A stretch of DNA of 36,344 nucleotides from a virus (taxonomy: Duplodnaviria > Heunggongvirae > Uroviricota > Caudoviricetes), in the IMG/VR virus record IMGVR_UViG_2541047905_000018, one strand, 5' to 3'. Numbering within the stretch: position 1 is the first letter of the stretch; every line of letters starts with the position of its first letter. The notes below the pieces were generated by a model, which was not told where the DNA came from, made no database searches, and worked only from the letters and a program-made list of their open reading frames with translations. A program made the translations under genes and the position numbers. Of this stretch, positions 1,466 through 34,938 are shown piece after piece.

Positions 1466-3525
1466 TCCACAACCTCCCCAAGCTGCGCATCTGTTAGCTC
1501 TTTATGCCAGAGACGAAAATTCCTCACATGCCCAAATAAATGGCGTAATCCTGCTGTAGTTTGTCCACCAATGCGAATGGTTGCTGTACTCCGGATATAT
1601 TCCCATGTGGTTTTTGTTTCGCTGGATATACGCCCGTTACTTACTGCACATGTAGACTGATCTGACTTTACACGCATCCCCATAACCATTTTTTTCAACG
1701 ATGCGTTTTCGTTAACACGCCTATTTGATCCACCAATATCGCAATAAGGAAATCCGTCTGGCCCATCTGCCGAAGATCCGAAGCCAAGAATAATAGCCGC
1801 TCCGGTTTGATGACCGCCGGTATCAAAAACACGTGGCGCTGCATTTGGCGTTTTATACCAGTTCTTATGTACCTCACAAAGAACCGTAAAAGGAAGATTA
1901 TAAAGATTATTCTTAATCGGAACTGTAACCATATCGCTTGCGCGCGTCGCCGCCGTCGTTCCTGATATAATAAAAGATGATACACACGAACCATCCTCAA
2001 CCTGAGGGGTGGCCAGATAAATATAGTCACCAGATTCAACGACACCACCTTTTTTTGGTGCGTATTGTATTGCAGAGGTTATGTAAGTTTCTTTACTTGC
2101 TTGAATCGTTGCCTCTACAAAAATCCAGCCCGTAGCTTCATCTTTGTTAACTCGTGCGGTGAGCCTGTCGGCAGCTACACCGGTGATTTCAACCAATAAA
2201 GACCGCGTATTAACAATGGCATATCCAAGATTAGATGAAGCGCTGCCATCGAAGGCTTCAAACCTGATCCTTAACAGGAGTTCCAAATCCGTTTTAAATC
2301 TGCACGATGTCGTCACACACTTATTATCGCCTGATACATCGACAGCCCCCGAGGTTGAAACTACTGCCATATTAAGGGTTGTACTTTGCCCAATTAATGA
2401 TTCATTACAAACAAACTTTCCATAAGTAAAACCAAAACTATCAGTTCCAACCTCAGCGACATTCATATTTGCAGATTTACCCCAAGAAGCTGGAGTTGCT
2501 GAATTCAACATGTAGTTGGTTCGCTGACCTTCAATCAATAAACCTTCTTTTTCAAATCGTGGCTCATTAATTTCCGCCGTTTTCAGTTCGCCAGATTTGT
2601 TGATATATGTTGCCGTTGATGCGCGACTGAAATTAACCTGTTTATCACTGGCAACCTGAACCACATTATCACCAATCTTCACTTTTTTATAACCCGGAGA
2701 ATAGCCCGTAATCATATCCAGCGAATCATTAAAGGGTATCCACACATCCGGCAGCGGCTGTAAAACATATCTGTACGGCTCTGCTGTCTGGTTTGCGTAT
2801 TCTCTGGCAGCATCTTCACTTGCTTTTGCTGCCGTCTGGCTTGCTGCCGATGCTTTCGCCGAGTTCGCCGCCGCTGTTTCGCTCACCTTTGCGTTGGCTT
2901 CACTGTCTTTGGCATTCGTCTCACTGGTTTTCGCTGCCGTCTGGCTGGATTTTGCGTTTTTTTCGCTGGCCTTTGTGGCTGTCTCGCTATTTTTCGCGCT
3001 GGTTTCTGATTTTTTGGCTGCTGTCGCGGAGTTTGCCGATGCAGTCTGCGAGGCCGCTGCCGCCTGTGCGCTGTTAGCTGCATTCGTTTCTGAGGTTTTC
3101 GCCGCATTCTTCGATGAGGCTGCTGCCGTTTCGGATTTCTTTGCCGCCGCTGCACTCTGTGATGACGCTCCGGCATGACGTGCCACTTCATTCACCATCA
3201 GCTCAAAACGGCGCAGTGCCTCCGGACGAACATCATCCTCCGTCATGGCGCCGAGAAAATCATTCAGCGTACCTGGTCTGGAACCTTCATAGACGGTAAT
3301 GGTCCCGGCATGTGAAGGCGGAAAACCTTCAACCAGCAGGGTGACGCTGTACTGGCCATACTCAACATCCATGCTGTAACGCCCGGCTTCATCCGGATTT
3401 TCAGAGGCCACCGTGTTCACCACCACCGTGCTGCTGGTCCGTCTGGCCTTCAGCACAATGGTGCAGTTCTGTACTGGTTTTCCTGTGCCATCTTTCAGCA
3501 CACCTGAGATTTTTACTGCTGCCAT
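1462..3525 (-). CDS. stf: Side tail fibre protein (lambda Stf-like N-terminus, Ala/Ser/Thr-rich repeat shaft, divergent C-terminal domain)
   Basis: N-terminus MAAVKISGVLKDGTGKPVQNCTI... matches lambda Stf as recalled; ATG at 3525 preferred over GTG at 3531; C-terminus ends with a LamG/ConA-lectin-like motif (inference). Confidence 0.88.
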   Translation of the reverse strand: MAAVKISGVLKDGTGKPVQNCTIVLKARRTSSTVVVNTVASENPDEAGRYSMDVEYGQYSVTLLVEGFPPSHAGTITVYEGSRPGTLNDFLGAMTEDDVRPEALRRFELMVNEVARHAGASSQSAAAAKKSETAAASSKNAAKTSETNAANSAQAAAASQTASANSATAAKKSETSAKNSETATKASEKNAKSSQTAAKTSETNAKDSEANAKVSETAAANSAKASAASQTAAKASEDAAREYANQTAEPYRYVLQPLPDVWIPFNDSLDMITGYSPGYKKVKIGDNVVQVASDKQVNFSRASTATYINKSGELKTAEINEPRFEKEGLLIEGQRTNYMLNSATPASWGKSANMNVAEVGTDSFGFTYGKFVCNESLIGQSTTLNMAVVSTSGAVDVSGDNKCVTTSCRFKTDLELLLRIRFEAFDGSASSNLGYAIVNTRSLLVEITGVAADRLTARVNKDEATGWIFVEATIQASKETYITSAIQYAPKKGGVVESGDYIYLATPQVEDGSCVSSFIISGTTAATRASDMVTVPIKNNLYNLPFTVLCEVHKNWYKTPNAAPRVFDTGGHQTGAAIILGFGSSADGPDGFPYCDIGGSNRRVNENASLKKMVMGMRVKSDQSTCAVSNGRISSETKTTWEYIRSTATIRIGGQTTAGLRHLFGHVRNFRLWHKELTDAQLGEVVE
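2829..3159. repeat. Internal degenerate coding repeats in stf (KTSETNA/AAKKSET units)
   Basis: Repetitive nucleotide and peptide units visible in sequence and translation. Confidence 0.6.
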
Positions 3526-19813: not shown

Positions 19814-21571
19814 TCACAGAATTAACAGGTCCTCATCAGGATCAAGCGTGGACAGAAAGTCATTCACGCCCCCGCCATTTACCAGAAAGCGGCTCATGGC
19901 TGTAAAAAGCGCAACAGGGCCGTCGATTTTGGCTTCCGGCGTGGATTTATTCGGGAAGATGTTGTCGTTTTTGTCCGGTTTTACAGTAACGTTAGACATC
20001 ATCCAGTTCATGACCGGATGATTGCTGTGATGGAAACGCCCGGCATAAACCAGTGATTCCGTTTCCTTCATGGCCTCTGACAGATTGCGGACCGTCTGCG
20101 GAACCTCCACCAGCGGTATCCCTTCTTCAGCCAGTGCCAGGCTGAACTGCATTGCGCTCCACGGGTCAAATCCCAGTTCCCTGAGGTTTTCACCGCCAAT
20201 CCATTCCAGTAAGTCACTTTTTATCTGAGCATGATCGATAACATCACCATCCGTCAGGATGAGCTTATCCATCTCCGCCCACTTCCGGTAAAGTTCTGCC
20301 TGCTGCCGCGAGCATCGCTCCAGCCGTCCTTCCGGAAGCCAGAATTTAAAATCAGCATGAACATGTCCGTTATCGGTTCGCCAGAGTTTTGCCGCCGCAC
20401 AGATATCAATCTTATGAGCAAGGTCTACGCCGACCCACATGGGATATGTTTTCAGCTCATGTTGTGGAGCAATGTATTCGCACTTCTCCCACTTAATCAT
20501 ATCCATCCAGGCAGATTCGGCAGTGACCCACACATTCATGTGTTTGGTAAAAAAATTCACCCGCGCAGAGACCTGCTCCTTCGCTTTTTTCGCCAGACGA
20601 CGCAGATCATCCCAGCGTTTACAGATGCCCAGGCCAGGATTCGCTTTCTGCCAGACCGTTTCATCAAACGGATCATCTCCCTCATCAAGCGTGTAAATGA
20701 TCGCAAAGTAAGAGTCGTCTTTTACAGCGCCCTCCACGTCGCTGTTATAGCCTCGCAATACCTTGATGGCGTAATCACGCTGCTCGTAACAAATCCCTTC
20801 CTTGTTAAAGCCAGCCGTGGTGATACCAAATAACAGGGACTGCAGACGGGCACCGGTTGCCGTTTCCAGAACGTCCCACACGTCGCGGGTTTTATGTGCA
20901 TGCAGCTCATCAATAATGGCGCAGTGGATGTTCAGACCGTCCAGGTTGTTTGCATCCGAGGAAAGCGGTTCAAATTTTGATGCGCTCTGCTCCTGGTAAA
21001 TCGCCAGCTTGTTGAAATCAAACAACCGCCCGAGTGTCGACCGGGCTTTTCTGACCATATTTTTGGCGTCTTCAAACACGATTCTGGCCTGGTCACGCGT
21101 GGTTGCGGCTGAATACACCTCAGCTCCGCCTTCACTATCTGCCCCCGTCATATACAGGCCGATACCCGATGACAGTGTTGATTTTGCGTTTTTACGGGCG
21201 ACTTCGTTGTACGCCGTCCGGAACCGGCGCACCATCACCGGACGTCCGCTGCCATCGCTGCGCATGACAACTTCCCCGGTTTCTTCATTGACCAGCGGAA
21301 TGACAAAACCAAAAATATTAATGAGGATAAATACATGCCAGTCCATCAACTCAATGGGCTGGCCTGCCAGTGCCCCTTTTACATGAGGCACAAATTTGTA
21401 GAAATTCAGGATGTGCTGCGCACGGGGTTCACTGAAATAAATCCCCCGCTTTTCGCCGTACTTCAGATCATCAAGAAAACGCTGGCAGGCCAGGCGGACA
21501 AATTCGCCAGCAACAATTTCTCCTGCAACAACACGTTCGGCGTAGCGGATCCCGTCAGCCACTTTTGCCAT
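19814..21571 (-). CDS. Terminase large subunit
   Basis: 585 aa; ATPase and nuclease regions; follows small subunit with ATGA overlap. Confidence 0.9.
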   Translation of the reverse strand: MAKVADGIRYAERVVAGEIVAGEFVRLACQRFLDDLKYGEKRGIYFSEPRAQHILNFYKFVPHVKGALAGQPIELMDWHVFILINIFGFVIPLVNEETGEVVMRSDGSGRPVMVRRFRTAYNEVARKNAKSTLSSGIGLYMTGADSEGGAEVYSAATTRDQARIVFEDAKNMVRKARSTLGRLFDFNKLAIYQEQSASKFEPLSSDANNLDGLNIHCAIIDELHAHKTRDVWDVLETATGARLQSLLFGITTAGFNKEGICYEQRDYAIKVLRGYNSDVEGAVKDDSYFAIIYTLDEGDDPFDETVWQKANPGLGICKRWDDLRRLAKKAKEQVSARVNFFTKHMNVWVTAESAWMDMIKWEKCEYIAPQHELKTYPMWVGVDLAHKIDICAAAKLWRTDNGHVHADFKFWLPEGRLERCSRQQAELYRKWAEMDKLILTDGDVIDHAQIKSDLLEWIGGENLRELGFDPWSAMQFSLALAEEGIPLVEVPQTVRNLSEAMKETESLVYAGRFHHSNHPVMNWMMSNVTVKPDKNDNIFPNKSTPEAKIDGPVALFTAMSRFLVNGGGVNDFLSTLDPDEDLLIL

Positions 21572-22053
21572 CAGTCTCTCGCTTTTAAAAGCTCTGCCAG
21601 CGGATCAACATTATCCGGTCCGGCGGTATTTACTTTTGCCCGGCTTGCCGGTGACATACCAAATTCTGCAAGCATCGCCCGGATCCGCTTCCAGGCATCC
21701 GCTTTCATCGCAGCAGCTGGGTGTGCCTTAATCAGCACATCACCGTTCTGCGTTTCCGAGCGGTAGGTGTACCCCTCAACATCGAGTGTTTCGCAGTGAT
21801 GCCGGTATTCGGTATAGGCTTCCACCAGTAGCTCAAGCGCACGCGCATCAAGCTGAGAAATGATCCCTTCCGCATTCAGCTCTTCCGCCATTCGCCTGAA
21901 CCAGTACTTCCCCTGCGCCCCTAAATGTTGCGGAATTTTAGGGAGACCTTTTTCATCCTTTTTAGCGGTTTTTTTGAGGTCTTTAACTGGCCGCTTTGAG
22001 GGGTTGCCTCGTATCAAATGCAGGCGTGGCGGGGTTTTCGGGGGTCCAGACAT
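21571..22053 (-). CDS. Terminase small subunit (P27 family)
   Basis: 160 aa, basic N-terminus MSGPPKTPPRLHLIRGNPSKRP. Confidence 0.85.
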   Translation of the reverse strand: MSGPPKTPPRLHLIRGNPSKRPVKDLKKTAKKDEKGLPKIPQHLGAQGKYWFRRMAEELNAEGIISQLDARALELLVEAYTEYRHHCETLDVEGYTYRSETQNGDVLIKAHPAAAMKADAWKRIRAMLAEFGMSPASRAKVNTAGPDNVDPLAELLKARD

Positions 22054-22099
22054 AATCGGTTTTACCTATCAATCATTTAATCACATTCCAAAAAAAAGT

Positions 22100-22200
22100 T
22101 TTCGAACCTGCGGCGATGCGAGGAAAGGTCAGGCGGCGGTACTGAGCAGCCTGGGTTGCAGAGATTTGATCCCCCCCCTCCCCCTTGAAGATGGCGGCAA
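22100..22200. other. Candidate cos/packaging-site region upstream of terminase small subunit
   Basis: Non-coding GC-rich stretch with AGGTCAGGCGGCGG and a CCCCCCCCTCCCCC run, between the HNH/cassette and TerS; exact cos ends not identifiable. Confidence 0.25.
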
Positions 22201-22282
22201 AAAGCAGATACTGGCCACCCATCAGGATGCTCAGCATGGTGTATTCAGTTAATCTCAATAAATAAAAGATGGAGTCTAAGAA

Positions 22283-22798
22283 ATGGATAAAACCAGAAAA
22301 TATGACAGAGCCTTACAACTTGAAATCCTCAATGCCCTTATAGATTGCGCGCCTAACTCTTTAAACAAGGCACAGGAGCGAGACCTCATTGAGAAGTTTG
22401 ACAGTTACGATCACTTTGTGGCGTGCATGTTATACCTTGAAATGCATGGTCTCGTTTCCACCCCCTTCATACGCAGTGACACCATGGCTGGCGTTGAGTT
22501 TATCTTCTGTGCCCCTAACTGCTACATTACAGAAAAAGGAATTGATTTTCTTCTCGATGATGGCGGCTTAAGTGCGATCCTTAAAGTTCAGACCTTTCGG
22601 TTACACAGTGACACGATTGTTGCCCTTGAGGATATAATCCGTGTCGCAAATATATCTGAAGATCAGAAGAAGGGATTGATTTCAAAACTCCGAGAGCTTC
22701 CGGGAGACGCCATAAAACATTTGACCCTACAGTTACTGACTCAGGGGGTTCTGAATCTGCCGAACGCACTTCGACTAATTCAAACAACCCTCCAGTAG
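22283..22798 (+). CDS. Hypothetical protein A1 (171 aa), partner of B1; paralogue of A2 at 33611..34114
   Basis: GGAG SD 8 nt upstream; conserved with A2 (MDK..., ITEKGIDFLLDDGGL, LRELPGDAIKHLT). Confidence 0.7.
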   Translation: MDKTRKYDRALQLEILNALIDCAPNSLNKAQERDLIEKFDSYDHFVACMLYLEMHGLVSTPFIRSDTMAGVEFIFCAPNCYITEKGIDFLLDDGGLSAILKVQTFRLHSDTIVALEDIIRVANISEDQKKGLISKLRELPGDAIKHLTLQLLTQGVLNLPNALRLIQTTLQ

Positions 22799-22937
22799 GG
22801 CTAAACTCATCTGAGGGGCGAATTAACTCAAATTTGCCCCATCCCAGTTTTTCACTTAAAACAACCCAAAATCCCTCCCGGGTATCTGCATGAATATAGA
22901 AACTATTTTTATGCATTACAGCAGTGAATATTATCAT
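22581..22937 (-). CDS. Hypothetical protein B1 (about 118 aa), partner of A1; paralogue of B2 at 33478..33771
   Basis: Start MIIFTAVMHKN at 22937 overlaps the HNH stop (ATGA); the N-terminal 46 codons lie outside A1 and are conserved with B2. Confidence 0.65.
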   Translation of the reverse strand: MIIFTAVMHKNSFYIHADTREGFWVVLSEKLGWGKFELIRPSDEFSPTGGLFELVEVRSADSEPPESVTVGSNVLWRLPEALGVLKSIPSSDLQIYLRHGLYPQGQQSCHCVTERSEL

Positions 22938-23284
22938 CGAATACGTTCCCTTGCTGTCTTCTCTCTGTGGCATTCCCTGCATAACGACTCAAGATTGGAG
23001 TCATCATCGGTGCCGCCATGAGCTTTTGGAATCATGTGGTCTACAGTCCTGGCCTCAACGGCTCGTCCATTGCGCAGACAGTTCTTACACAGATGGTTAT
23101 CACGCTTCAGTATACGCGCACGTATAACATCCCATTTCGAGCCATAGCCACGCTGGTGGCGACTCAGTCCGCGTTGATGCTGTACCCATCCTTCACCACG
23201 ATGTTTATCGCAGTAACCAGAACTGTCTGTGGTTGTACCTGCGCATCCACGCTTACGGCAGGCACGTGGGATTCGTGATGGCAT
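22934..23284 (-). CDS. HNH endonuclease (terminase-associated)
   Basis: 116 aa with Cys-rich N-terminus and DHMIPKAHGGTDDDSNLESLCRECHREK HNH motif. Confidence 0.85.
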   Translation of the reverse strand: MPSRIPRACRKRGCAGTTTDSSGYCDKHRGEGWVQHQRGLSRHQRGYGSKWDVIRARILKRDNHLCKNCLRNGRAVEARTVDHMIPKAHGGTDDDSNLESLCRECHREKTARERIR

Positions 23285-25101: not shown

Positions 25102-25107
25102 GCATGT

Positions 25108-25137
25108 AAAAAGGCCCCAACACATGTGCGTGGGGCC
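25108..25137 (-). terminator. Rho-independent terminator on minus strand, downstream of the tRNA cluster
   Basis: GGCCCCA-11 nt-TGGGGCC followed by U5 on the minus strand. Confidence 0.5.
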
Positions 25138-25377
25138 TGAGAGTATACATGGTTTCAGTCAACTGCATGGTGCCGGGTGCCTCCCGGTGAATTCAGTACC
25201 AGCACCTGAATCCGCGATTATCCCATATACCTACTCGCTGATTGCCCATCCGCACAGGGGGATTCACCATGCCAGTTTCTTTTAACAAACTCCCCGCAAA
25301 ACAGACAACTGTCAACCGTCTGAATTGTGAGACATTTAAAAAAAAGGCCCGCAAAAGCGAGCCGGGAAAAATAAGTC

Positions 25378-25454
25378 TGGCGCGTTGTACTGGATTCGAA
25401 CCAGTGACCGATTGCTTAGAAGGCAATTGCTCTGTCCGGTTGAGCTAACAACGC
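25378..25454 (-). tRNA. tRNA-Arg (anticodon UCU)
   Basis: Hand-folded cloverleaf: acceptor GCGTTGT/ACAACGC, anticodon loop CUUCUAA, T-loop TTCGAAT, encoded CCA. Confidence 0.8.
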
Positions 25455-25467
25455 AGGGTACAGATAA

Positions 25468-25544
25468 TGGACCGCCATCGAGGACTCGAACCCCGCGCAA
25501 CCAGCTTCGAAGGCTGGTGCTCTATCCTGATGAGCTAATGGCGG
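25468..25544 (-). tRNA. tRNA-Arg (anticodon UCG)
   Basis: Hand-folded cloverleaf: anticodon loop CUUCGAA, T-loop TTCGAGT, encoded CCA; acceptor starts with C1-G72. Confidence 0.75.
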
Positions 25545-25551
25545 TATGTGA

Positions 25552-25627
25552 TGGTGGCCCTTGCTGGATTTGAACCAGCGACCTGGCGATTATGAGTCGC
25601 TCGCTCTCACCACTGAGCTAAAGGGCC
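25552..25627 (-). tRNA. tRNA with CAU anticodon (Met, or Ile2 if lysidine-modified)
   Basis: Hand-folded cloverleaf: acceptor GGCCCTT/AAGGGCC, anticodon loop CUCAUAA, T-loop TTCAAAT, encoded CCA. Confidence 0.8.
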
Positions 25628-29557: not shown

Positions 29558-30499
29558 TCACCCCCTGAATCCTTCCGGGATCTGGCTGTAGTCCACGTTG
29601 TCGTAACTGGCTTTGAAGTACGGGTCCTCACGTTTTTCTGTGTGCGTGCTGACGGACGGCGATAAGCGCAGGGAAAGCTCATCCCATTTTTCCCGCAACT
29701 TCGACGGGCTGAGCACGTTACGGCACCAGAACGGATCACGGCTGACGCGGCTGTACATCTCGCAGATTTGTTTGTGAGTACGACCATCCTGCACACACAT
29801 CAGGCGAATTTCGTTTGCCCATGCTGTCCAGTTCGGTTCTTTGGGACGAACCACCTCGCCGTCACATTCGGCGGCCTGCTCGTACAGGGCGATGATTTTT
29901 TTCCAGAGCCACTGTGCGCAGGTCAAATCATCCTGCGTTCCCCACTGGCGCTTTTTAGGGCTGAATACAACCGCATCAGGATGGCGAGTTAAAAAATCCT
30001 GTTCAGCCGTCTGCGTGTCCGGTTGCAAAGCGTCCGGACGAGAAGGTTTTTTATCTGACGGATCATGTTTTGATTTTACTGACGGATCCCCGCCAGATTC
30101 TGACGGGTGAAAACACGCTTTTTTGCCAGATTTCGACGCATCAAATTTTGACGGGTCAGATTTTGATGCGTCAGATTTTGACGGGTCAGAATCTGACAGT
30201 TGAGAAAATGCCGCAGCCTGAAGCTTCGCAACGTTAAGCTGATAAACATTCGACGCATTGCGGTTACCCTGGCGACGCGCCTTACGCGTTAACCAGCCTT
30301 CTGCTTCCAGCCGTGCGATAGCCGTTCTGACGGTACTCATCCCCGCGCCAATCTGGCGGGCAATGGTTTCAATTGATGGCCAGCACACACCCTCGTCATT
30401 ACTGAAATCAGCCAGACGGGCCATAATTGCCACACTGGATAATTTCATGCCTGACGCTGCGCAACCATCCCATACATAGCCGGTTAATTTGGTGCTCAC
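29558..30499 (-). CDS. Replication initiator (lambda O-like N-terminal HTH) containing origin iterons
   Basis: 313 aa with N-terminal helix-turn-helix; central SD(P/A)SKSD repeat encoded by tandem iterons. Confidence 0.7.
   Translation of the reverse strand: MSTKLTGYVWDGCAASGMKLSSVAIMARLADFSNDEGVCWPSIETIARQIGAGMSTVRTAIARLEAEGWLTRKARRQGNRNASNVYQLNVAKLQAAAFSQLSDSDPSKSDASKSDPSKFDASKSGKKACFHPSESGGDPSVKSKHDPSDKKPSRPDALQPDTQTAEQDFLTRHPDAVVFSPKKRQWGTQDDLTCAQWLWKKIIALYEQAAECDGEVVRPKEPNWTAWANEIRLMCVQDGRTHKQICEMYSRVSRDPFWCRNVLSPSKLREKWDELSLRLSPSVSTHTEKREDPYFKASYDNVDYSQIPEGFRG
30066..30203. repeat. Origin-type iteron array: about seven tandem 15-18 bp repeats (GATTTTGACGGGTCA consensus)
   Basis: Three near-perfect tandem copies at 30144..30188 flanked by degenerate copies, inside the O-like gene. 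Confidence 0.7.
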
Positions 30500-31353
30500 T
30501 TACGCACCTCCTTATGCTTTTCGTTCAGTTCCGAGTCCACCAGCCCGGCAACGAATACACCATCGTTGATGTAGTCGTAGAGCGATGAAGCCAGCGGAGA
30601 CTGAACTGAAACCAGCATCGGATAAAGTTGTTCTAACCAAACGCGGTGAATTTCAGCCATGTAGAGGTAAACAACGTGGGCATTGTGCGCGACACATGAA
30701 GTATCAACCTTTCCGATCAGCGCCTGTTCCATCTGGTTAAAGGCATTGATGTATGCCTCTTTGAACTGGGCAGCACGTTTACCCGTGAAACCCATAGCAA
30801 GAAACGCAAAGCCATCGCGGGTTATTTGATAGCAAGGTAGTTTGCGAGTACCGCCGTTGGGCTGGCGTACCAAAATTGATGTCTCCGCAAAATTGCGGGC
30901 ACAAAACTCTGGAGAACAATCCAAAATGCGAATCTTTTTCAGAACATCGTCATGACGTTTAGAGAAGAAGTCAGCAACAGCCAAAGAAGATGTAACAGCC
31001 TGACCATCAACGATGGCAATTTCAGGTTGAGAGAGGGTTGGGAGAGTAGTCATAGTGACAGCCCCGGTAGTCAGTTTTTTAGAAAACTCACCACATGGGA
31101 CGCCAATCACAGAGGTGGTGAGACGTACAGGGTTGGCGTTACCGGAGACTACCGAACCCGGCCCGACCGAAGTCGGCCCTGTACGCCCCACCATAATTTG
31201 GGCGTAGCAATGCTCATGACACGAAAAAACCGCATGAGCGCGGTTATGCTCAGTAATCAATTTCAGGACGCCAATCCCGGCAACGGATTTTGCCGCTGCC
31301 AGAACAATATAACGCCCAGAATTATCAGAATCAATCATTACTGGTTTGCTCAT
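30496..31353 (-). CDS. Rha-family phage regulatory protein with about 100-aa N-terminal extension (start uncertain)
   Basis: Rha-like region begins at internal Met (31053, MTTLPTLSQPEIAIVDGQAVTSSLAVADFFSKRHDDVLKKI); the ORF is open upstream to ATG 31353. Confidence 0.55.
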   Translation of the reverse strand: MSKPVMIDSDNSGRYIVLAAAKSVAGIGVLKLITEHNRAHAVFSCHEHCYAQIMVGRTGPTSVGPGSVVSGNANPVRLTTSVIGVPCGEFSKKLTTGAVTMTTLPTLSQPEIAIVDGQAVTSSLAVADFFSKRHDDVLKKIRILDCSPEFCARNFAETSILVRQPNGGTRKLPCYQITRDGFAFLAMGFTGKRAAQFKEAYINAFNQMEQALIGKVDTSCVAHNAHVVYLYMAEIHRVWLEQLYPMLVSVQSPLASSLYDYINDGVFVAGLVDSELNEKHKEVRK

Positions 31354-31701: not shown

Positions 31702-32339
31702 GCGTTAGTTTCTCCACAACCAGAAGCAATCGACGCCACGACGCCCGGAGCTGCACACTCGCGGGCGTTACTCTTTTCCGGCGCACAAAAAACACGAAAT
31801 AACAGTGTTAAATGCTCCTGCCACTTCGCCATTACTTGGTAGCTGTTCTCTTCGATTTGCTCACGCTCAGCTTGGTCAATAACTCCATCAGCAGTTGCCT
31901 TGCGTAAGTACTGGGAATGCTTGCCAATCCATTCTATTGACTCCATCAGCCGCTGATTAATGTCACCATTGTCAATGTCATCAATGACCACCAGCGGCAC
32001 AAACACCCCATTACTACGACGGGCTATTGCATCCGTTACATGCCTGGTACCACTGGCATCCTGTAAAACCATGGCCCACTCAAGTGGAAAAATTTGATCC
32101 CCACCGCTACGCAGTCTGTTATGCAATTGATCTTTTGCTGGGGTGATATCATCAGATTTATACAAACCAAGAATTTCTGCTGCTTCCTCATAGCCATGAG
32201 GTAAATCAGCAATCGTTCTTCGTATTGCTGCCACCAGCCATGCTGGTTGCTTATCAACTTTCCATTCAGGTTCTTTACCCACGTTTAAGCCCTCATATCT
32301 GTGGTTTCTGTAAATCGATTTATCCATTAGATTTTTCAT
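31698..32339 (-). CDS. cII-position protein, YdaT-like (putative)
   Basis: 213 aa immediately downstream of a YdaS/Cro-type gene; start taken at ATG 32339 (MKNLMDK). Confidence 0.4.
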
Positions 32340-32520
32340 AAAGCTCAGGTTTAAATGGCAACCGTCCGCAAGTTCTATATGCAGCCTCTGCTGCACGTCC
32401 TTTTGGAATTAACTGGCCAGGACGGTTTCGCCACTGATAAACGGCTTCAGTTGTTATGCCGAAAAAAGCAGCAACTTTCTCAATGCTGCCGAAGTAGCTT
32501 TCGATATCGTCAGTCGTCAT
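32320..32520 (-). CDS. cro: Cro-like repressor (YdaS/Cro HTH family)
   Basis: 66 aa, divergent from cI; AAFFGITTEAVYQWRNR helix-turn-helix. Confidence 0.75.
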   Translation of the reverse strand: MTTDDIESYFGSIEKVAAFFGITTEAVYQWRNRPGQLIPKGRAAEAAYRTCGRLPFKPELYEKSNG

Positions 32521-32617
32521 ATGCCCTCCAAACTAAGTTTTATTAGATGTTAATTATCAATCTATCTTAGGTCAATAAAAACTAAGATTACTTAGTAATT
32601 AAAGAAATGGTGCTCCT
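32521..32617. promoter_or_regulatory. Right operator/divergent promoter region (PR/PRM) between cro and cI
   Basis: Perfect palindrome ACTAAGATTACTTAGT (32581..32596), CTTAG-N11-CTAAG and CTAAG-N5-TTAG in a 97-bp AT-rich intergenic region. Confidence 0.65.
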
Positions 32618-33244
32618 ATGGAAACGGTTGGTCAGCGTATAAAAGCTCTGAGAAGAGTTACCAGAACGTCCCAGAAAGAATTGGGTAAATTTTGTGGAGT
32701 AAGTGACGTTGCTGTGGGGTACTGGGAGAAAGACATCAATGTCCCTGGTGGGGAAGCACTTTCAAAATTAGCGAAGTTCTTCAATACGTCAATAGATTAC
32801 ATTCTTTATGGTGCGGAGTTTGAAGGCAAACTCGTCACAAACATGCGCAGAGTTCCTGTAATCTCGTGGGTTCAGGCTGGGCAGTTTACTGAGTGCAGGA
32901 CAGCAGAAGTGTTTAGTGAAGTAGACAAGTGGGTAGATACATCATTAAAGATTGGTGATAACTCATTTGCATTGGAGGTTAAAGGCGACTCCATGACTAA
33001 CCCTAACGGCCTCCCAACAATACCAGAAGGCGCAACAGTGATTGTAGATCCTGATGCAGAACCCCGGCATGGAAAAATAGTCATCGCTAGACTTGATGGA
33101 ACAAACGAAGCCACAGTAAAAAAATTAGTTATCGATGGCCCTCAAAAGTTTTTAGTGCCATTAAATCCCCGGTACCCCAACATCCCGATCAATGGTAATT
33201 GCCTCATCATTGGTGTAGTCAAAGGAGTTCAATACGAACTCTAG
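32618..33244 (+). CDS. cI: CI-type prophage repressor (N-terminal XRE HTH plus C-terminal LexA-like S24 peptidase)
   Basis: 208 aa; HTH near N-terminus; C-terminal GDSM...K autocleavage-type domain (VKGDSMTNPNG...ATVKKL). Confidence 0.88.
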   Translation: METVGQRIKALRRVTRTSQKELGKFCGVSDVAVGYWEKDINVPGGEALSKLAKFFNTSIDYILYGAEFEGKLVTNMRRVPVISWVQAGQFTECRTAEVFSEVDKWVDTSLKIGDNSFALEVKGDSMTNPNGLPTIPEGATVIVDPDAEPRHGKIVIARLDGTNEATVKKLVIDGPQKFLVPLNPRYPNIPINGNCLIIGVVKGVQYEL

Positions 33245-33262: not shown

Positions 33263-33325
33263 AAAACACCGAACTAAGAAAAGTTTGGTGTTTTCTCTTG
33301 CCATCAAAACTAAGTTAAGTTAGAT
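33263..33325. promoter_or_regulatory. Hairpin plus further CTAAG operator-like half-sites downstream of cI (candidate left operator or cI terminator)
   Basis: AAAACACC-16 nt-GGTGTTTT hairpin with AACTAAG in the loop, then AAACTAAGTTAAGTTAG. Confidence 0.4.
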
Positions 33326-33477
33326 TTTATATCAAAGATAACGAACAGGCAGGACGCCCACGAAGTAGCCGCCCGGGGCATATGAAGTCCAGGATGATTC
33401 GTTAGCAACAAAAAAGCGCCCTACAGGACGCTTAGCTCTTTAACAATCTTGGTATCCCCGTAACAAAAGAGGGTTCT

Positions 33478-33771
33478 ATGGTCATATTCTGTGCTTACGT
33501 TCATCCTAATGGATTTTTTATCAGCACCAACCAACAAGACGAATTCTGGATTCTACTTAGTAAGCAGGTCGGATGGGGACGATTCTGTCTAATCCGACCA
33601 GAATCAGAATTTACAGAGAATGGAGGGCTTTTTGAATTACGTGAAATACGTCCGGCAGATGGTCAAGCCCCTGACCAAGTAATCGAATCGTCAGCTGTTT
33701 TATGGCGTCGGCAGGAAGCGTTCGAAGCTGAGAGAGTAATTTCTTCTTATCTTCAGTCGTGGCAGAAGTAG
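33478..33771 (+). CDS. Hypothetical protein B2 (97 aa), paralogue of B1, co-directional with cI
   Basis: AGAGGG SD; about 44% identity to B1 over the conserved core (FW..LS...GWG.F.LIRP..EF...GGLFEL). Confidence 0.65.
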   Translation: MVIFCAYVHPNGFFISTNQQDEFWILLSKQVGWGRFCLIRPESEFTENGGLFELREIRPADGQAPDQVIESSAVLWRRQEAFEAERVISSYLQSWQK

Positions 33772-34114
33772 AACTATTGATGATACGTTCAAGTTCACAG
33801 AGAGTCTCATCATGCAATCTTATTGTCATAATCCCAAGAATAGCTTTAAGACCTCCATCATCACGAATGAAATCAATTCCATCTTTAGTAATTCTTAATT
33901 CAGGAATATTTATATTTATGCCATCCAAGTAATAATCAAGAGCATTCTTAATCAAGCCATGTTCTTCGAGATAAATTAAGTTCGAAATTAGGACATTATC
34001 ATCTCCAAATGCGTCACGAACAGACTGCAACGCATCATCAGAAATTTCATAAGGATGAGCATCATACAGTATTTGTAACAACTGCCTTTGTGCACTTCTA
34101 TCAAATTTGTCCAT
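33611..34114 (-). CDS. Hypothetical protein A2 (167 aa), paralogue of A1, convergent with B2
   Basis: Conserved with A1 (ITKDGIDFIRDDGGLKAIL, LRTLPADAIKQLT); 3' end overlaps B2 by about 160 bp on the opposite strand. Confidence 0.7.
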   Translation of the reverse strand: MDKFDRSAQRQLLQILYDAHPYEISDDALQSVRDAFGDDNVLISNLIYLEEHGLIKNALDYYLDGININIPELRITKDGIDFIRDDGGLKAILGIMTIRLHDETLCELERIINSSTSATTEDKKKLLSQLRTLPADAIKQLTIRLLGQGLDHLPDVFHVIQKALHSL

Positions 34115-34394
34115 CTTAAATAATCACCATGTTATTGGGGGTATCAAGATTAACCGAATCCTTGTTGTTGGGGAATAACCAGGTCCACCTCGCCTGATGT
34201 GGCTAAAAGCAGGCACATAACAGCTAAGTATTTTCAACCAGAGAGAATCCTTAGCGTTGTGGTGAATGCGGCTCAGCGCACGCGGGTTAAGGTTGAGGCT
34301 GACAGTCGACCTTCTGTGGATACCCACCCGCCTGGTGTGCAACCTTCGCCAGGCACCGGGAGGCACCCGGCACCACAACAGCCACTGCTTTGGC

Positions 34395-34438
34395 GGTACC
34401 AGTTTGTACACTTGCTTCCGGCTGGTACCGCTCTTTTT
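34395..34438 (+). terminator. Hairpin plus T-tract (plus-strand terminator; T-tract doubles as a boxA-like CGCTCTTTTTAC)
   Basis: GGTACCAG-19 nt-CTGGTACC followed by GCTCTTTTTAC. Confidence 0.45.
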
Positions 34439-34575
34439 ACAAAACAGAGAAGAGCATCACCGGACGACGGGCTCATAACCCAATCCATCCGGGCGGCTGC
34501 CACCGCAGGTGTTCTTCTCTGTTTTGTGGAGAAACCAACCGACCTTGCAGGGTCGATATGATGAGGAGCAGCAAA

Positions 34576-34938
34576 ATGGCTAGCGAACGCAGTACTGATG
34601 TGCAGGCATTTATCGGGGAGCTGGACGGCGGCGTATTTGAAACCAAAATCGGCGCAGTTCTCAGTGAAGTCGCTTCCGGTGTGATGAACACGAAAACCAA
34701 AGGTAAGGTCTCGCTCAACCTGGAAATCGAACCGTTTGATGAGAACCGTGTGAAAATCAAACACAAACTCTCATATGTTCGCCCGACTAACCGCGGGAAA
34801 ATTTCTGAAGAAGACACCACCGAAACGCCGATGTATGTCAATCGCGGTGGTCGCCTGACTATTCTGCAGGAAGACCAGGGACAATTACTGACTCTTGCCG
34901 GTGAGCCTGACGGAAAACTCCGCGCAGCAGGTCATTAA
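34576..34938 (+). CDS. YfdP-like early-left protein (120 aa)
   Basis: ATG with GAGGAG SD 7 nt upstream; length and synteny match K-12 CPS-53 yfdP as recalled. Confidence 0.55.
   Translation: MASERSTDVQAFIGELDGGVFETKIGAVLSEVASGVMNTKTKGKVSLNLEIEPFDENRVKIKHKLSYVRPTNRGKISEEDTTETPMYVNRGGRLTILQEDQGQLLTLAGEPDGKLRAAGH

Follow-up and report, generated by a model that had tools for sequence, protein, structure and literature searches.

The exclusion genes rexA and rexB of phage lambda are co-directional with the cI repressor gene and co-transcribed with it in the lysogen, and RexB is a membrane protein. The DNA analyzed here, a stretch of 36,344 nt (IMG/VR record IMGVR_UViG_2541047905_000018; hereafter the window), is an E. 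coli lambdoid prophage with HK97-type head and packaging genes, and its early-left region is CPS-53-like (yfdP, yfdQ and downstream genes). Next to its cI gene lies a pair of convergent, overlapping genes, A2 and B2, in what a preliminary description of this DNA called a rexAB-like slot. The pair raises the question of what such cargo does for a prophage: whether both overlapping reading frames are genes, in which state of the prophage each would be expressed, and whether the pair works as rexAB does or in another way.

A terminator-like hairpin and a putative promoter separate A2/B2 from cI

B2 (33478-33771, + strand) encodes 97 aa, of which the part up to ~33747 (aa 90) is constrained, and a Shine-Dalgarno-like AGAGGG lies 5 nt upstream of its start. 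A2 (33611-34114, − strand) encodes 167 aa and corresponds to the PGAP hypothetical protein WP_000357060 and to PHROG 3983. The two genes converge and overlap antiparallel at their 3' ends over 161 nt (33611-33771, both strands); the coordinates, the convergence and the ~160-bp overlap given in the preliminary description were exact. B2 is co-directional with the gene for the cI-type (LexA-family) repressor (32618-33244, + strand) and starts 233 nt past its stop codon, beyond a hairpin and CTAAG sites, again as described before (~230 bp). cro is found at 32320-32520 (− strand), and operators of the pattern ACTAAG-N4-CTTAGT occupy the interval between cro and cI (32532-32596).

We observed that the hairpin after cI (33263-33294, + strand) is terminator-like, with a 13-bp stem (−15.6 kcal/mol, z −4.1). 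CTAAG-containing operator-like sites lie at 33273-33288 and 33309-33324, and a PL-like sigma-70 promoter candidate lies at 33298-33326 (+ strand; TTGCCA, 17 nt, TAGATT). The operator-like sequence ACTAAGTTAAGTTAGA (33309-33324), which matches the operator at 32532-32547 in 13/16 positions, overlaps this candidate. The candidate promoter sits in backbone common to phages with other cargo, and would drive B2 together with the yfdP/Q/R operon. With the hairpin and the operator-overlapped promoter candidate between cI and B2, B2 most likely opens an early-left operon under repressor control and would thus be an early lytic gene; A2 then becomes the candidate for a lysogen-expressed gene. The earlier expectation that B2, like rexAB, is expressed in the lysogen is not supported by this order of elements, as far as it can be read from the DNA. 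The rexAB-like slot itself was borne out in that a duplicated two-gene cargo lies next to cI, and not in its transcriptional sense, since cI and B2 have a terminator hairpin and a promoter-like site between them.

On the minus strand, a canonical intrinsic terminator with a GC stem and U6 (33433-33414) lies in conserved backbone, 45 nt beyond the B2 start codon. It would stop the A2 transcript after full antisense coverage of B2, and would shield cI from antisense transcription. Upstream of A2, a sigma-70-like promoter candidate (34147-34120, − strand; TTGATA, 16 nt, GATTAT) matches the consensus at 9/12 positions; we infer a promoter here from a weak consensus match only. The −35 of this candidate lies in conserved backbone. 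Only 5 nt separate the end of its −10 from the ATG, and the A2 mRNA could therefore have little or no leader.

A 446-nt backbone spacer without annotation (34131-34576, + strand) separates the cargo slot from yfdP. Its + strand folds better than shuffled sequence (z −5.3, vs −2.4 on the − strand). The spacer contains a 25-nt inverted repeat (34439-34463 / 34503-34527), has no Rfam match, and might serve the early-left operon as a leader or as a put-like RNA for antitermination.

A second, diverged copy lies in the late operon

The second A/B copy announced in the preliminary description was found in the late operon of the same prophage. A1 (22283-22798, + strand; 171 aa) is a paralogue of A2, opposes the late operon and has a GGAG Shine-Dalgarno. 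B1 (22581-22937, − strand; 118 aa) is a paralogue of B2 and overlaps A1 by 218 nt. An HNH endonuclease gene (22934-23284, − strand) is directly upstream of B1 and the small terminase gene (21571-22053, − strand) is downstream of the cassette, which gives the order HNH, B1, antisense A1, TerS, TerL. The start codon of B1 and the stop codon of HNH overlap as ATGA, indicating translational coupling inside the late operon.

Identity by BLASTP is 39% between A1 and A2 (E 4e-35) and 48% between B1 and B2 (E 4e-32); both likenesses are far beyond chance. Between the copies, nucleotide identity is 45% in the part that is A only, 55% in the part that is B only, and 70% in the overlap. We did not find a sigma-70-like promoter for A1. 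The earlier statement that A runs from its own apparent promoter in both copies thus finds a weak match for A2 (9/12) and none for A1. PGAP calls a hypothetical ORF of 54 aa between the small terminase gene and A1 (22073-22237, − strand, placed by position in the related locus L106); this ORF falls in a 230-nt region in which the A1 promoter, and perhaps cos, would also be expected.

A search of the whole window with Rfam placed no RNA family in or beside the cassette. Elsewhere in the window, gathering-score matches to C4 antisense RNA (31111-31198) and isrK (31223-31299; together 31111-31299, − strand) lie inside an ORF of 285 aa (30496-31353), a P1/P7-type c4-icd-ant immunity element in a lambdoid prophage. 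An STnc100 sRNA match (25102-25301) is accompanied by three tRNA genes (25381-25627) in the segment 25102-25627 (− strand). Within the replication O-like gene (29558-30499, − strand) we observed tandem iteron-like repeats with a period of 15 nt (30127-30201; about five units, CAGATTTTGACGGGT-like), which are probably the origin.

Both reading frames are under selection in the overlap

Long antiparallel protein-coding overlaps in bacteria are rare and often doubted, and in this case the annotation adds to the doubt: B2 is not annotated by PGAP, B is missing from both RefSeq records examined, and called B proteins form only ~50 clusters. A, for its part, has a PGAP annotation, as a hypothetical protein. 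B might be a non-gene that appears conserved because A, or an RNA element in the 3' region of A, is under selection.

We gathered ~100 related loci via A, of which 43-44 non-redundant loci entered an analysis of variability, defined as the mean pairwise difference by codon position. A B homologue with a ribosome-binding site and an ATG was present opposite A in ~80 of the ~100 loci; across related loci B starts 118-166 nt beyond the A stop codon and reaches 152-218 nt into A. The first 44 codons of B lie outside A. Their variability was 0.40-0.54 at position 1, 0.27-0.48 at position 2 and 0.61-0.70 at position 3, a normal coding signature.

The wobble position of A was near-saturated in aa 1-121 (variability 0.57-0.71, roughly 0.67) and fell to 0.23-0.44 in aa 122-167, exactly opposite aa 45-90 of B. 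In the phase of this overlap, position 1 of B faces position 1 of A, position 2 of B faces position 3 of A, and position 3 of B faces position 2 of A. Because the wobble base of A is the second codon base of B, the drop is what selection on B predicts. As a control, 13 A homologues without B kept a wobble variability of 0.71-0.76 over the same region. We also shuffled the last 50 codons of A synonymously: the B frame, open to aa 90 in 43/43 loci, stayed open in only ~2% of the reshuffles. Past residue ~90, B tails differ in length and sequence and are unconstrained.

The zone from 33611 to ~33747 (~135 nt) is under purifying selection in both frames, and both A and B are genuine genes under selection, overlap included. 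The coding pattern of the 44 codons outside A, the conserved ribosome-binding site and ATG, and an open frame that the A protein sequence does not explain all speak against B as a by-product. The B-less control set points the same way, as does a confident predicted fold of B that uses residues from both the overlap and the non-overlapping part. We consider it most improbable that B is not a gene.

The A/B cassette behaves as mobile cargo

Comparison with phage vB_EcoM-689R6 delimits an exchangeable cargo module at 33450-34130 (approximate breakpoints). The backbone common with 689R6 takes in the terminator after cI, the PL-like promoter with its operator, and the terminator on the minus strand. 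In that phage (locus L002) the slot after cI holds a gene for 68 aa (2743-2949, + strand; phrog_1744) and a gene for 144 aa (2921-3355, − strand; phrog_5286). This pair is convergent with a 29-nt overlap; we considered it as a distant relative of A/B and rejected it, as the comparison found it to be unrelated. In general, the slot after cI may be a site for convergent pairs in which a small sense ORF faces a counter-oriented gene. Among complete E. coli genomes, flank-only matches occurred in 1,565/5,426 and the cassette itself in 76.

The family spans gamma- and beta-proteobacteria. A/B slots elsewhere lie after cI, between Q and the lysis genes, at HNH/terminase genes and at tape-measure/tail genes, and in Paraburkholderia the pair comes directly after cro. 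Co-directionality of B with cI, as first described, therefore holds for the copy beside cI, and elsewhere B follows cro, Q/lysis, HNH/terminase or tail genes. The more general observation, that B runs with the surrounding operon and A against it, extended from the two copies in the window to the family: both flanks were co-directional with B in 36/43 non-redundant loci. B starts within 25 nt of the stop codon of a co-directional ORF in 15/42 loci, four of which have start/stop overlaps, including ATGA. A terminator in the direction of A lies just past the B start in 13/43 related loci. Upstream of A, family-wide inspection by eye gave no convincing −35/−10 of a conserved promoter; the HNH/terminase subgroup has conserved blocks there.

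The Edwardsiella phage GF-2 offers a different setting (locus L110, 2232-3013, gp21-gp20). There an Arc/Mnt-like regulator gene lies upstream of the A homologue, gp20, in the same orientation and with a 4-nt overlap, opposite an arc-ant operon. This association with an Arc/Mnt-like regulator places A among lysogeny-type genes and hints that it is expressed along with genes for the maintenance of lysogeny.

We observed that A and B are not lost symmetrically. A occurs without a recognisable B in distant lineages, and in the Kluyvera loci L004/L036, and likewise in locus L042, A is intact and B is lost or disrupted. The Gilliamella locus L108 keeps B, and a fragment of A of 103 aa is all that is detectable beside it; no B was seen without at least a remnant of A. 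The occurrence of A without B in distant lineages suggests that B is an add-on to A and not obligatory, a relationship that fits an antidote better than a toxin. Overall, the A/B cassette behaves as mobile cargo, with a modular distribution that hops among classic cargo hotspots.

A and B are predicted to be small soluble proteins

A belongs to PHROG 3983 (function unknown), matched by A2 with E 2.6e-59 and by A1 with E 1e-56 over 164/165 profile positions. An exhaustive profile search returned 1,136 A clusters at 50% identity; no domain fusions were found among these relatives, all of which stand alone at ~160-170 aa. In the predicted structure of A (AlphaFold, pLDDT 79.8), an N-terminal winged helix is followed by a linker, GIDF-x2-DDGGL, that is highly conserved, and then by four helices. 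With a pI of 4.4 and a net charge of −9, the winged-helix domain is strongly acidic, and no basic residues occur in its conserved 'recognition' helix, ANLxYLxEHGLI. Both properties suggest that A is more likely to bind protein than DNA.

B is acidic and soluble, with a length of about 95-118 aa. Its model (AF2, pLDDT 84.6) has five beta strands and a C-terminal helix, with the last strand and the helix encoded within the overlap, and had no structural match. The AF2 folds of both A and B are soluble, and no membrane segment was found in A1, A2, B1 or B2 (maximum Kyte-Doolittle value in a 19-residue window ≤1.39). The same four proteins gave nothing above the cut-offs of Pfam, NCBIfam and PADLOC; the best Pfam matches below cut-off were YjcQ (E 0.18) and MtxA_C (E 0.097). 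A profile search of PDB sequences returned nothing, and accession and keyword searches of the literature found no paper on A or B. Small, soluble and without an enzymatic domain, A and B fit the description of binders.

A/B resembles known defence and antidote pairs in layout

In Pseudomonas phage JBD26, the defence gene tab lies on the opposite strand, with its own promoter, in the late operon at the packaging genes (PMC10884400). The anti-Tab gene is in sense orientation and has a 1-bp overlap with the upstream terminase gene; the two genes converge with a 47-nt 3' overlap, their proteins bind each other, and loss of atab alone kills the phage and was not obtainable (PMC10884400). Tab and anti-Tab, 83 aa each, occur only in close JBD26 relatives and always between TerS and TerL (PMC10884400). 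A/B has the same elements: a counter-oriented gene in the place of the defence gene, a sense gene coupled to an upstream late gene in the place of the antidote, and a convergent 3' overlap. However, hhalign gave probabilities of 0.1-0.3% for all four pairings of A/B with JBD26 gp31/gp30, and the PHROGs differ. A/B also differs in size (167 and ~100 aa), in the length of the overlap (150-220 nt), in its range over gamma- and beta-proteobacteria and in its many slots. The position between TerS and TerL is not shared either, as copy 1 is flanked by HNH and TerS, and copy 2 sits beside cI.

A further example comes from coliphage phi80, where the defence gene tai interrupts the Q-dependent late operon in opposite orientation, an arrangement termed a 'non-contiguous operon', mostly upstream of the packaging module (PMC11364771). 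Tai is made in the lysogen, and over-expression of Q lowers its level (PMC11364771). ati lies in the late operon and Ati binds its cognate Tai; deletion of ati severely cut the titre, and the plaques that arose had transposase insertions in tai (PMC11364771). Tai is also found in PICIs and P4-like satellites (PMC11364771). Copy 1 likewise places an opposite-orientation gene in a lytic operon upstream of the packaging module. The hhalign probability of A/B against phi80 Orf63/Orf64 was 0.1-0.2%, and the geometry differs: tai, for a protein of 204 aa, and ati, for one of 76 aa, diverge and overlap by 20 nt at their 5' ends, whereas A and B are convergent with a long 3' overlap.

Two more systems were compared by description only. 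In TERi of Listeria phage phi10403S, the minus strand of the early lytic module carries terI, which overlaps anti-terI2, a gene of the other strand (10.1101/2025.02.27.640495). terI is constitutively transcribed in the lysogen, the antidote binds TerI, silencing by antisense RNA was seen, and the slot takes alternative non-homologous cargo behind a conserved promoter (10.1101/2025.02.27.640495). A slot for alternative cargo behind a conserved promoter was also seen here, in the comparison of the window with 689R6. TERi differs from A/B in its Gram-positive host, in TerI, which is 65 aa long and fully embedded, in its two antidotes (anti-TerI1 and anti-TerI2) and in its known target, TerS. Beside its repressor, the Pseudomonas Mu-like phage Fc02 has antisense-overlapping protein genes (olg1/olg2/gene 10), with expression of one in the lysogen and of another in the lytic operon; they act in superinfection exclusion, and both products exclude phages (PMC9936078). 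The antisense overlap beside a repressor is common to Fc02 and A/B; the Fc02 genes are without a demonstrated antidote role. We also considered GiPD474 (PMC12724215) as a related system and rejected it because it has an ATPase domain.

Tab/anti-Tab, Tai/Ati and TERi were each established experimentally in the same architecture, which lends support by analogy to a defence and antidote reading of A/B. The shared architecture, together with the lack of homology to the families tested, suggests that A/B lies outside Tab/anti-Tab and Tai/Ati and is yet built alike.

A proposed model of A as a lysogenic defence protein and B as its lytic antidote

Drawing on these analogies, we propose that A/B may be a new, widespread family that combines a prophage defence gene with its self-antidote in a non-contiguous operon; we give this proposal about an even chance. 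The assignment of roles, in which A would be a lysogen-expressed anti-phage protein and B its cognate antidote in the lytic cycle, seems to us evenly poised between right and wrong. We infer the lysogenic expression of A, its anti-phage activity and target, and the binding of A by B.

In the lysogen, transcription from cI would stop at the hairpin, and the operator-overlapped promoter would be repressed. A2 would be transcribed from its own promoter (candidate 34147-34120) to 33414, covering B2 in antisense, and A might then block a superinfecting phage by binding a phage or host protein. Upon induction, the PL-like promoter in copy 2 and the Q-dependent late transcript in copy 1 would express B, which would be made only when its own prophage goes lytic. 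B would neutralise its cognate A, probably by direct binding, and the phage would thereby avoid self-inhibition.

The orientation of the genes adds a possible second layer. To reach yfdP/Q/R in copy 2 or the terminase genes in copy 1, lytic transcripts must cross A in antisense, as the preliminary description had pointed out from orientation. Because the genes converge, share 150-220 nt and the A transcript would run across the whole of B, lytic read-through should lower A. This could occur by transcriptional collision and antisense pairing, and would leave two mutually exclusive states; the two-state switch proposed earlier thus draws support from the anatomy of the locus.

The backbone terminator on the minus strand, which would end transcription out of the slot, counts in favor of a non-contiguous operon. 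The weak promoter match of A2 and the absence of one for A1 count against the defence and antidote reading, as do the lack of homology to Tab, anti-Tab, Tai and Ati, the lack of a PADLOC match, and the occurrence of A without a recognisable B in distant lineages.

Alternative functions for the pair

In a regulatory pair, the winged-helix protein A could act as a DNA-binding second repressor or roadblock that controls the transcription of phage or host in the lysogen, with B as an induced anti-repressor after the logic of Mnt/Arc/Ant or Tum/CI. MarR/wHTH transcription factors have the fold predicted for A in common with it, but A lacks their basic recognition helix or wing and gave no significant Pfam HTH match. 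The acidity of the domain and its recognition helix free of basic residues count against DNA binding, and no conserved operator was found. The cassette also moves between slots and phage types that are unrelated, and one prophage carries it twice, as would be expected of cargo and not of core circuitry. We regard a regulatory function as unlikely. Alternatively, B could be a small toxic or host-modifying protein of the lytic cycle, with A made in the lysogen to guard against leaky B, or the reverse. Two small-protein genes on mobile elements are in keeping with such a toxin-antitoxin or host-takeover role, and the antisense overlap recalls type I systems. However, the genes are convergent and match no toxin or antitoxin family in Pfam, NCBIfam or PADLOC, whereas type II systems have a co-directional bicistronic operon and recognisable domains. 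B is acidic, soluble and without a membrane segment, and A often occurs without B, whereas B was never seen without at least a remnant of A. A role of this kind appears quite unlikely.

The position of the cassette right after cI, in a slot whose content differs from phage to phage, is what an exclusion operon like rexAB, co-expressed with cI in the lysogen, would show, and rexA and rexB resemble A/B in being accessory cargo that adjoins the repressor gene. Unlike them, A and B are convergent, with A2 on the opposite strand, and are cut off from cI by the terminator hairpin and the operator-overlapped promoter in front of B2. A and B are also unrelated in sequence to RexA and RexB (Pfam, NCBIfam, PADLOC) and are soluble, with no membrane protein among them, and the same cassette is found in late and early-right operons elsewhere. 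We consider a rexAB-like operon very unlikely.

Implications for prophage immunity

Whatever its function, the A/B pair provides a clean example, backed by evolutionary evidence, of two proteins encoded antiparallel over a long overlap. B, a conserved gene, is missed by the annotation pipelines checked. For mining further modules of this type, the layout provides a genomic signature, in which a cargo gene runs against its operon and a small ORF in the sense of the operon overlaps the 3' end of that gene.

A broader proposal is that A/B founds a large unrecognised family of defence and counter-defence modules in Proteobacteria prophages, with >1,100 A clusters at 50% identity. In this proposal annotation would systematically miss the antidote, since the antisense strand of the defence gene encodes about half of it. 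The dual-coding overlap would be functional, and defence and antidote would be inherited, exchanged and diversified as one unit. One prophage could stack two orthogonal copies, one wired into an early and one into a late operon. A would act through a new, non-enzymatic binding of protein, on a phage target unlike those of Tab, Tai and TerI. With all of these parts taken jointly, we put the proposal forward as tentative and on balance doubtful.

The kind of system is already known. To our knowledge, the class of defence genes with self-antidotes has so far consisted of a handful of narrow, unrelated examples. What distinguishes A/B is its long dual-coding convergent overlap, the breadth of the family, a B gene that goes unannotated, and two diverged copies, in an early and a late operon, in one prophage. 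If the proposed function is true, A/B would add a widespread Gram-negative family to prophage immunity based on defence genes and self-antidotes in non-contiguous operons.
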